From the sequence record KC295538: DNA of 64,000 nt. One strand, 5' to 3'. The notes beneath the pieces were generated by a model. That model was not told the origin of the DNA, made no database searches, and saw only the letters and a list, made by a program, of their open reading frames with translations. Positions within the stretch are counted from its first letter, which is position 1, and the number at the start of each line of letters is the position of its first letter. This document shows, one piece after another, positions 60,858-62,200 of the stretch. Source of the DNA: Escherichia phage PBECO4. Made by a program: the position numbers and the translations under genes.

Positions 60858-61388
60858 TTATTCAAGTATAGTAATTTCAATTAAACGAATTTCGATAAAC
60901 TCGTTTTCAGTTTCCCATGACGTGCCAAATTTCTTTTCAAGTTCAGATTTCACATCACTTTTAAATTTTCCCATAGTATTAGGAATAATTTGTTTGGTTA
61001 ATTTGTCGTAACCACAATAAAACATAGGTTTCTCCCTTCGAGATATTAGCTGAACAAAATCTTTTGGATATGCAGGTATGTTATGCATCACTTCATGAAT
61101 ACACTCAGTACTTGAATCTTGTACTTTGTACATTACATTAAGTTTACCTCTGAAATTTGCGGTCATATCAACAATAGTTCCTTTACCCGATTTAAGTAAA
61201 GTTCCATTCTTTGAATGAGAGCAATAAAATACCTCATCACCAATATTAGGATAATACAAATTAAATTCTAATTCAGATTTTACAGCCAGCCGTTTGAAAC
61301 TTTCTGTACGTTTTATATAAGTTTGGTATTTGTTTATGTTCAAAAGAATATCTCTCTTAGTAAATGTGATATAACTGGCATAGTCCAT
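60858..61388 (-). CDS. hypothetical protein (176 aa)
   Basis: Track ORF. Confidence 0.65.
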   Translation of the reverse strand: MDYASYITFTKRDILLNINKYQTYIKRTESFKRLAVKSELEFNLYYPNIGDEVFYCSHSKNGTLLKSGKGTIVDMTANFRGKLNVMYKVQDSSTECIHEVMHNIPAYPKDFVQLISRREKPMFYCGYDKLTKQIIPNTMGKFKSDVKSELEKKFGTSWETENEFIEIRLIEITILE

Positions 61389-62200
61389 CCATTCCCAAGC
61401 ATTTTGTATGCTTGTGTCTTACTAGACACTTTAAAGAAATCTTCAGGAACACCCTGTAATTTACAACATTCTACTACACTTAAGTGTCTATAGTCAATAT
61501 TTCTTTTGCCATTCTCTAATAGATATTGACGACTGATCACTGGGTCACGAAACACCAATTGTCGTCTGGATTTATTAAAGTACTGGTTACAATCACCACC
61601 TTTAAAATAGTTAGCATCTATACAGTACGAAGCGGTTCTGTCAGTGTACCAACCATCTTCAATAATATCTTGAAGTTTAGGTGCATTGGATAATGCAGGT
61701 GGTATAAAAAGCTTATCAGTACTGTACCAGTAATATCTCTGCCTGAAGTGAGGCGTATAATGCTGGGAGTTTATCAGTACTGGCGTGATTCCTAAAATAC
61801 TATTAATGTATTCTTTGAAATCTTCTTTCATTTTAACATTTTCAAACAGAAATTTCAAGTTAGGATTAAGACTTTTGATATGATCAAAAATTTCAACCAT
61901 TACTAAAAATAACTGCCCACGTATATCATTTAAACCACCCTGTTTACCTGCTACTGACCAGGCTTGGCATGGGAAACCACCCATTAATAAATCTATTTTG
62001 TCCCACTCAATATCCCATTCTCTCCACTTAGTTACATCACCCAATTGGATAATATCAGGAAAGTTAGATTGAGATTCAGCTATTGCGTACTTATCAATTT
62101 CGGATGAATAATATTTTTCAACTGGGATACCAGCATCTTGCAATGCCATATATCCCACACTCATTCCATTAAAAAGAGAAAGTACTCGGATAGGTTTCAT
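61340..62200 (-). CDS. DNA (cytosine-5) methyltransferase, orphan
   Basis: Motifs read in translation: LSLFNGMSVGY, GGFPCQAWSVAG, FLFENVK, QHYTPHFRQR, MLGNGWTMPV. Confidence 0.8.
   Translation of the reverse strand: MKPIRVLSLFNGMSVGYMALQDAGIPVEKYYSSEIDKYAIAESQSNFPDIIQLGDVTKWREWDIEWDKIDLLMGGFPCQAWSVAGKQGGLNDIRGQLFLVMVEIFDHIKSLNPNLKFLFENVKMKEDFKEYINSILGITPVLINSQHYTPHFRQRYYWYSTDKLFIPPALSNAPKLQDIIEDGWYTDRTASYCIDANYFKGGDCNQYFNKSRRQLVFRDPVISRQYLLENGKRNIDYRHLSVVECCKLQGVPEDFFKVSSKTQAYKMLGNGWTMPVISHLLREIFF

Follow-up and report, generated by a model that had tools for sequence, protein, structure and literature searches.

The methyltransferase gene and its product

The DNA analyzed here, referred to as the window, is a stretch of 64,000 nucleotides from Escherichia phage PBECO4 (KC295538). 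Its minus strand carries an ATG-to-stop ORF at 61340..62200, as given in the ORF list, with a product of 286 aa that was identified as a putative DNA (cytosine-5) methyltransferase. The features recognized in it are given below; statements on invariant residues and the limits of the variable slot are based on a family alignment of 59 sequences (A1).

61340..62200, minus strand: DNA (cytosine-5) methyltransferase CDS, stop included (ORF list, PF00145, TIGR00675, phrog_116, AF2 model)
62153..62173, minus strand: motif I, F10-N-G-M-S-V-G16, putative SAM-binding loop in the DNMT3-like 'LSLFxGxxxG' form (L7, S8, L9, F10 and G12 invariant; aligns with DNMT3 'LSLFDGIATG')
61964..61972, minus strand: motif IV, P77-C78-Q79, with the predicted catalytic cysteine (P77 and C78 invariant)
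61835..61843, minus strand: motif VI, E120-N121-V122 (invariant)
61727..61744, minus strand: motif VIII, R153-Q-R155-Y-Y-W158 (R153, R155 and W158 invariant; aligns with DNMT3 'RARYFW')
61550..61630, minus strand: family-invariant recognition-loop block, S191-YCIDANYFKGG..QYFNKSRRQLV-F217 (C193, A196, Y198, K200, K210 and R212 invariant; DNMT3C alignment)
61493..61549, minus strand: hypervariable insertion slot, R218-D236, ~20 aa, presumed to determine specificity (A1 columns ~245-380)
61445..61489, minus strand: motif IX, R238-H-L-S-V-V-E244...Q-G-V-P252 (R238, L240 and E244 invariant)
61373..61396, minus strand: motif X, G269-N-G-W-T-M-P-V276 (G269 and N270 invariant)

The ORF was found to match Pfam PF00145 (E=7.5e-38; 131.2 bits against a cutoff of 22 bits) and TIGR00675 dcm (119.2 bits, cutoff 100.65), and residues 1-285 matched phrog_116, 'DNA methyltransferase' (E=5.3e-60). 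Motifs I, IV, VI, VIII, IX, and X occur in the canonical order, are invariant in the family alignment and are kept across the clade of related phages described below. On these matches the ORF is classified as a full-motif C5-cytosine DNA methyltransferase and a member of PHROG 116. The AlphaFold2 model of the protein has a pLDDT of 93.9 and a pTM of 0.91, and its Foldseek matches to solved C5-methyltransferases (E about 1e-24) correspond to a class I Rossmann-type methyltransferase fold, while a fold search of BFVD returned generic viral methylases only. The gene is under strong purifying selection, with dN/dS values of 0.04-0.10 against seven clade orthologues in which the motifs and the loop block are conserved.

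Motifs VIII and IX lie 83 aa apart, and ~27 aa of this interval make up the invariant loop block S191-F217. This block aligns with the TRD loop of DNMT3, K200 lying opposite the DNMT3C lysine in 'TTKSNS'. The hypervariable slot has ~20 aa in the PBECO4 ORF against 0 to ~100 aa in relatives (A1). Target recognition thus appears to be cut down to the loop block (SYCIDANYFKGG...KSRRQLVF) and the ~20-aa slot, which would replace the separate recognition domain of HhaI-type enzymes. Such compactness is usual for the family, since 49 of the 120 best database matches are no longer than 300 aa.

Genomic neighbourhood

None of the nine flanking ORFs (86-171 aa) has a significant Pfam domain, and all belong to PHROGs of unknown function. 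A recognizable nuclease partner was found neither beside the methylase in the window nor in annotated 121Q, EJP2, GAP32, CBB, and XbC2; with no endonuclease gene adjacent, the possibility that the gene is the methylase half of a type II restriction-modification pair was ruled out. At its 3' end the methylase gene is abutted or overlapped by the next ORF downstream, which starts at TTG 61343 (the 121Q annotation) or ATG 61388. Two putative expression signals were placed upstream of the gene:

62208..62212, minus strand: Shine-Dalgarno-like AAGGA, 8 nt upstream of the ATG (read from the sequence)
62238..62267, minus strand: candidate sigma-70-like promoter directly upstream of the methylase gene, TTGGAA-18-TATAAT with a TG extended -10 (consensus scan, 10/12 match)

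The number of sigma-70-like matches in this AT-rich region is not above that in shuffled sequence, and the one at 62238..62267 is to be read as a candidate only. The gene appears to belong to an extended leftward run of small genes of early type that follows this candidate promoter, and the enzyme would probably be made early in infection.

The methylase gene is present in none of the complete E. coli genomes, and the closest cellular homologues show at most 47% identity. The single cellular homologue whose context was inspected, from Glaciecola (47%), lies in a lambdoid prophage beside NinG. Because no copy was seen on an E. coli chromosome, the nearest inspected cellular homologue is in a prophage and the neighbouring genes are domain-free, the prediction of an orphan phage methylase is supported. 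Deriving the specificity from a bacterial restriction-modification context was rejected, given the low identity of the best cellular homologues and the prophage location of the inspected one.

A sequence-only reading of this DNA had reported all diagnostic C5-methyltransferase motifs within 286 aa, a very short target-recognition region and the lack of an adjacent restriction endonuclease. These three points are borne out by the profile matches and the 59-sequence alignment, by the ~20 aa of the hypervariable slot (a size that is ordinary for the family) and by the domain-free flanking ORFs.

Relatives and distribution

The surrounding 4 kb are 99.8% identical to Escherichia phage UB and ~99% identical to 121Q, phAPEC6, slurp01, Sharanji, and others; phages of the UB/121Q type belong to the Asteriusvirus jumbo phages within the RaK2-like group. 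The gene is already known, with identical and correctly annotated proteins in GenBank: proteins of 100% identity occur in at least 11 phage records (UB, phAPEC6, and slurp01 among them), and the 121Q copy, gp91, bears the annotation DNA-cytosine-methyltransferase. Orthologues from Asteriusvirus, Mimasvirus and RaK2-like phages (121Q gp91, phAPEC6, GAP32_390, CBB gp580, and the RaK2 'putative DNA-methyltransferase') represent the same gene at the same syntenic position, with aa identities to the PBECO4 protein from 100% down to 63.6%, the latter for RaK2. They show no substantive difference apart from misleading automatic names on some records and an intein in the methylases of phages A4 and TH47. 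The intein in A4 sits exactly between P77 and C78; the window copy is without one. Insertion at the catalytic cysteine, as in A4, is typical of functionally constrained sites and was therefore counted in favour of the active, protective enzyme proposed below.

Homologues were found in 786 phage records, and PHROG 116 is a very large, predominantly phage-borne orphan family. Other relatives within it, such as phi92 gp043, BASEL phage PaulScherrer, Vibrio phage ICP1 and the nin-region methylases of lambdoid prophages, share the invariant loop block and the orphan context at 35-51% identity. Unlike the PBECO4 enzyme, many of them have 30-100 extra residues in the variable slot, and therefore their specificity probably differs. 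The gene is named in the papers on Sharanji, CBB, and RaK2 (the last being PMC3622015), sometimes automatically as 'M.HaeIII'. The literature on these three phages assigns it no recognition site, and no published recognition site was found for any PHROG 116 phage orphan methylase. Deriving the specificity from named homologues was likewise rejected, as the more than 8000 relatives bear generic or automatic names only. Several of the database names on this protein (M.HaeIII, HpaII, DNMT2, Dcm) are misleading and are flagged here.

The sigma-factor gene at 35595-36557 was used as a clade marker and picks out 69 clade genomes, several sub-lineages of which are missing from the methylase match lists. 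The Eneladusvirus sub-lineage (Serratia phage BF and its relatives) lacks the methylase in genomes that are otherwise syntenic. In GAP32 the methylase is flanked by GAP32_388 and GAP32_391, whose orthologues adjoin each other directly in BF, leaving the methylase slot empty. Neither tblastn nor the family HMM found a methylase of the PHROG 116 family in the whole BF genome (357,154 bp, assembled from eight pieces), even at E<=10, while a control match on the window reached 1e-145. The methylase gene is accessory and is dispensable in Eneladusvirus. All features considered, it is best described as an ordinary, real and accessory orphan C5-methyltransferase, and as an annotated accessory gene of a well-sampled phage group it matters little in itself.

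Comparison with characterized cytosine-5 methyltransferases

The top 50 Foldseek matches in the PDB were all catalytic domains of DNMT3A, DNMT3B or DNMT3C, aligned over the full length with a TM of ~0.8 at 25-28% identity. A single-sequence search gave a similar result, with DNMT3C/3A/3B matched end to end (E about 3e-23) and M.HhaI/M.HaeIII matched mostly in the N-terminal half (about 8e-18). With the family profile the E-values were 4.8e-36 for DNMT3B, 2e-32 for M.HhaI and 3e-28 for M.HaeIII. As this puts DNMT3B only ~12 bits above M.HhaI, sister-group ancestry with DNMT3 is not claimed. The resemblance to DNMT3, as judged from the model and the alignments, is architectural, consisting in a single lobe with a loop-type recognition region. 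Specific points of likeness to the DNMT3A/3B/3C catalytic domain are a length of ~285 aa, the 'LSLF-D/N-G' form of motif I, the loop-reduced recognition region and a lysine aligned with that of the DNMT3C TRD loop. DNMT3 proteins differ in having PWWP and ADD regulatory domains and a DNMT3L-type partner, whereas the PBECO4 protein has none of these and consists of a catalytic domain only.

M.HhaI (GCGC) and M.HaeIII (GGCC) share the catalytic motifs and the mechanism class. However, in both of them recognition falls to a larger domain set apart from the catalytic one, and each has a cognate nuclease; the PBECO4 enzyme has neither. GCGC is absent from the phage and GGCC is down to 0.37, so that neither site is being protected. 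A Dcm/EcoRII-type CCWGG methylase was rejected, as NF007772 scored 21.4 bits against a cutoff of 710 and SexAI cuts the DNA of the related phage fEgEco12.

The name 'DNMT2' on one orthologue record raises the alternative of an RNA (tRNA) cytosine-5 methyltransferase serving the large tRNA set of the phage. Relatives have clusters of tRNA genes near the methylase gene, and DNMT2 structures are among the significant matches. These matches (E about 1e-16 to 1e-19) are mainly in the N-terminal half and are far weaker than those to DNMT3 and M.HhaI (1e-32 to 1e-36). The CFT motif that defines DNMT2 (PMC3227630) is replaced by C193-I-D, and 5mC has been reported in DNA for RaK2 on the basis of bisulfite treatment (PMC3622015). 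Identification as DNMT2 was accordingly rejected, and a tRNA substrate is regarded as extremely improbable.

Target site and proposed function

CpG methylation blocks SmaI, ClaI, and NruI, 5mC in AAGCTT blocks HindIII and Dcm methylation blocks SexAI (ACCWGGT). According to published digests, the DNA of fEgEco12, a relative of 95.5% identity, is cut by SmaI, ClaI, NruI, and SexAI. Taken with the enzyme sensitivities, this speaks against a global methylation of CpG, GpC or CCWGG, and global methylation with the CpG specificity of DNMT3 is contradicted by the cutting with SmaI, ClaI, and NruI. Should the methylase be protective, its target would lie outside the sites of the enzymes used. The RaK2 authors stated (data not shown) that bisulfite sequencing detected methylated CpG in a specific sequence context (PMC3622015). 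The data on relatives thus hint at a specific CpG-containing site, and CpG itself is barely depleted (odds ratio 0.87).

It is conceivable that PHROG 116 enzymes read DNA in a DNMT3-like manner, through the loop lysine K200 and the catalytic loop, at a CpG-centred site of 2-4 bp, and that they are the viral counterpart, possibly the source lineage, of the catalytic domain of eukaryotic de novo methyltransferases. The closeness to DNMT3 covers architecture and sequence and does not decide for or against a shared mode of recognition or a shared ancestry, and this idea is considered doubtful.

Extensive avoidance of restriction sites was observed in 289 kb of clade DNA, in which GCGC was found 0 times against 277 expected, GGTCTC 0 against 62, GAGGAG 0 against 41 and CYCGRG 0 against 69, with many other 6-bp palindromes also at 0. 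Not avoided in clade DNA are CCWGG (1.11), GCWGC (1.28), ACGT (1.08), and GTAC (2.5). The most reasonable function that may be inferred for the methylase is an anti-restriction role with a short recognition site, as the sequence-only reading had also suggested. The ORF would encode a solitary SAM-dependent DNA (cytosine-5) methyltransferase that is predicted to be active, and replicating phage DNA would be methylated at a short cytosine-containing site. Methylation would guard those sites which cannot be purged and so complement the extensive avoidance of restriction sites. The enzyme would then be an accessory layer, absent from Eneladusvirus and serving as an intein host at its catalytic cysteine in A4 and TH47. 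Weighing against it are the dispensability of the gene in Eneladusvirus, the undistinctive promoter match and the restriction sensitivity of the phi92-like phages described below. Taken as a whole, this explanation is considered probable.

A regulatory rather than protective role, in which the methylation acts as an epigenetic mark for replication, packaging or gene timing, was also weighed. A precedent is found in phage P1, where Dam methylation serves packaging. Phages that diverge by up to 2.7% in the flanks share a protein of 100% identity, a conservation that would suit such a role, and homologue-bearing related phages gain no obvious protection against restriction-modification systems. 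In particular, the phi92-like coliphages, which have a 51%-identical homologue, were described as 'exceptionally susceptible' to these systems, and according to the BASEL authors the presence of methylase genes in phages is not linked in any simple way to their resistance to restriction (PMC8594841). Nevertheless, the absence of the gene from an entire sub-lineage whose genomes are otherwise syntenic is hard to square with a core regulatory role, and no associated reader protein or motif was identified. A regulatory mark is therefore considered unlikely, and protection against restriction is retained as the preferred explanation.

The AGTACT excess and the absence of GCGC

The window was found to contain 176 copies of AGTACT against 18.4 expected and 35 copies of CAGTACTG against 0.92 expected, both expectations being from dinucleotide-preserving shuffles. 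Of the 64 palindromic hexamers, AGTACT alone is an outlier in the window; its sites are found in intergenic DNA as well as in each of the three reading frames, with a Poisson-like spacing (mean 361 bp). The excess is 7- to 11-fold in EJP2, GAP32, CBB, XbC2, a Klebsiella RaK2-like phage and an IMG/VR jumbo contig, in all of which GCGC is at 0. Salmonella phage Munch has a 6.4-fold excess of AGTACT, and GCGC at 0 against 48 expected. PA5oct, considered as an outgroup but left out of the evidence, displays neither bias. Purifying selection acts on individual AGTACT sites. When the window is compared with Turkey5 over 23.8 kb of 77.5% identity, 61% of the sites (44 of 72) are retained, as against 31% of same-composition hexamers (P=1.5e-7).

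The sequence-only reading had pointed out the recurrence of AGTACT and of CAGTACTG, which these counts confirm, and had added that the methylase might be related to the two motifs. This second proposal is refuted by BF, which is without the enzyme. In BF, AGTACT occurs 1072 times against 121 expected (8.9-fold), CAGTACTG 72 times against 3.5 and GCGC 0 times against 308. When BF is compared with Yersinia phage fHe-Yen9-04 over 47 kb of 84.5% identity, AGTACT retention is 67%, compared with 36.5% for controls (P=4e-10). Selection on AGTACT thus persists in the methylase-less BF lineage, and therefore the bias is not a relic of recent loss of the gene. Conversely, neither AGTACT excess nor GCGC purge was found in ~70 unrelated viral contigs with family members of 35-51% identity. 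The methylase does not drive the AGTACT excess, and the motif bias is a separate trait of the clade.

In its full form, the proposal would have the enzyme methylate the cytosine of AGTACT (or of its GTAC core), with the site enriched owing to that methylation. AGTACT and CAGTACTG are over-represented 8-fold and ~38-fold in the window, the AGTACT excess is present in every clade genome carrying the enzyme, and GTAC is absent from the sites of all enzymes used on fEgEco12 DNA, so that those digests do not bear on it directly. Against this, in addition to BF and the ~70 contigs, Munch has the AGTACT excess but no C5 enzyme in its 49-kb syntenic region, and no signature of deamination or Vsr-type repair is seen at the one-mismatch neighbours of AGTACT (AGTATT and AATACT are at expectation). 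A ~20-aa slot in a DNMT3-like fold would also be an implausible reader of a palindrome of 6-8 bp. Furthermore, A-5mC-T sites ~360 bp apart would be ideal for cleavage by McrBC, yet the phages were isolated on McrBC+ MG1655. Methylation of AGTACT as the cause of its enrichment is thus rated as very unlikely.

The absence of GCGC invites a different idea, that the enzyme acts mainly on host DNA at GCGC, either disturbing host processes or turning the methyl-dependent nucleases of the host on its own chromosome. An enzyme with this specificity would spare phage DNA, given the complete absence of the site from the 289 kb of clade DNA, and would fit the unaffected fEgEco12 digests; M.HhaI is also a significant sequence relative. 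However, because BF without the enzyme is equally devoid of GCGC, the purge is independent of the methylase. The recognition region is not HhaI-like, the M.HhaI alignment being essentially limited to the catalytic half, and according to the RaK2 authors 5mC is present in the phage DNA itself (PMC3622015). There is accordingly little to recommend a host-directed role at GCGC, which is judged highly improbable.

The value of examining the methylase is mostly negative, in that it could be separated from a clade-wide ~9-fold AGTACT excess, with sites under purifying selection, and from a complete GCGC purge. With the enzyme uncoupled from both, their causes are to be sought elsewhere, for example in a sequence-specific DNA-binding protein or in another modification or nuclease system. 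What is unusual about these genomes is the AGTACT bias together with the GCGC purge, and both merit an investigation of their own.

Several candidate causes of the AGTACT excess were already considered. An origin in mutation or repair (5mC deamination, Vsr-like) was rejected, as AGTATT and AATACT are not raised and C-to-T changes are not markedly in excess among the lost sites. BF gp151, a methylase of the SPPY type (N4/N6), was rejected as the modifier of AGTACT, since its 27 records all come from Eneladusvirus and Mimasvirus and it is not in Escherichia or Klebsiella members with the same bias. The idea that C5 and N4 methylases are interchangeable behind AGTACT is weakened by Munch, which is biased without a gp151-type match anywhere in its genome or a C5 gene anywhere in the syntenic 49 kb. 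Apart from primer sequences and one unrelated paper on a giant virus, a literature search on AGTACT and CAGTACTG brought up nothing. The site bound by SlmA is GTGAGTACTCAC, and this was also considered as the basis of AGTACT. It was rejected on the flanking bases, as C is favoured at -1 and G at +1 of the AGTACT sites and G is depleted at -1.

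AGTACT over-representation

The hexamer AGTACT was found to occur ~8–9-fold above expectation in the RaK2/121Q-like clade of jumbo phages (window 1–64000; compared DNA pieces L002–L006, L018, L089 and L170–L179, the last being Salmonella phage Munch, 245000–294000, which has the excess in common with the rest of the clade), with CAGTACTG reaching ~20–40-fold across the same sequences. Sites of AGTACT lie in every reading frame and in intergenic DNA, with a spacing of ~360 bp. Between the window and phage Turkey5, 61% of sites are retained compared with 31% for control hexamers (P = 1.5e-7), the corresponding values between Serratia phage BF and fHe-Yen9-04 being 67 and 36.5% (P = 4e-10). 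Purifying selection acts on individual AGTACT sites.

The sequence-only reading had tentatively linked this motif to the 286-aa orphan DNA (cytosine-5) methyltransferase of the window (61340–62200, minus strand). This source was rejected, as the excess is independent of the enzyme, and an SPPY N4-type methylase was rejected on the same grounds. It seems likely that a sequence-specific DNA-binding or modification function lies behind the bias.

Cytosine methylases of the clade

The SPPY-type enzyme is represented by the following gene of phage BF:

L172 36741–37601: gp151, PF01555 methylase of the N4-cytosine type, 286 aa, carrying a TSPPY motif

Orthologs of gp151 were identified in CBB, GAP32, XbC2, Kaldavass, the pEa_SNUABM phages and fHe-Yen9, with none in the 64-kb window. 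This type is confined to the Eneladusvirus and Mimasvirus sub-lineages and the C5 enzyme is carried by Asteriusvirus, the Klebsiella group and Mimasvirus, making the two cytosine methylases partly complementary in distribution.

In Escherichia phage A4 the C5 methylase ortholog is a 632-aa ORF (L088 1732–3630; ON286972 292647–294545) containing a ~346-aa intein with Hint and LAGLIDADG homing endonuclease domains, which separates Pro77 from the catalytic Cys78 (…GGFP|CFPAGT…VVHN|CQAWS…). The methylase of phage TH47 (MT446416) gave the same split match pattern, and the window copy has no intein.

Avoidance of GCGC and other sites

The tetranucleotide GCGC is absent from the window (51 expected), from clade pieces totaling 289 kb (277 expected) and from the whole BF genome (308 expected), and Munch shares this purge. 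Depletion of CCGG, GGCC and CGCG is far milder (0.3–0.5); CCGG is not avoided in Munch (50 vs. 47.7 expected), compared with 0.2–0.5 in other clade members. Numerous palindromes of 6 bp and recognition sites of type IIS enzymes likewise have zero counts (GGTCTC, GAGGAG, CYCGRG, GRGCYC). As the GCGC purge is common to phages of hosts ranging from Escherichia to Xanthomonas, it is possible that its reason is phage-encoded rather than host restriction.

Palindrome enrichment in other phage lineages

Other palindromic hexamers were strongly over-represented elsewhere, namely CTGCAG in PA5oct (14 vs. 2.3 expected), AACGTT in L052 (33 vs. 4.1), CAATTG in L034 (27 vs. 4.8), TTGCAA in L047 (27 vs. 5.9) and GATATC (~4-fold) in a group of 90–150-kb contigs within L064–L086. 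Enrichment of this kind, particular to each lineage, may be a phenomenon general to phages that has been little described.

Other features of the window

The sigma-70-family factor gene (35595–36557, minus strand) shows 57–60% identity between Asteriusvirus sub-groups (fEgEco12, Turkey5), despite the methylases of these phages being 89–95% identical to that of the window. This comparison of sequences indicates mosaicism or very unequal evolutionary rates inside Asteriusvirus.

A run of ~9 consecutive ORFs of ~1.1–1.3 kb each occupies 88–10100 on the plus strand:

88–1389, plus, ORF
1461–2609, plus, ORF
2681–3871, plus, ORF
4052–5125, plus, ORF
5131–6348, plus, ORF
6420–7595, plus, ORF
7671–8876, plus, ORF, followed by further ones

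The run looks like a tandem paralog array, and may be the counterpart of the multiple genes annotated "regulator of chromosome condensation" with which the BF genome ends.
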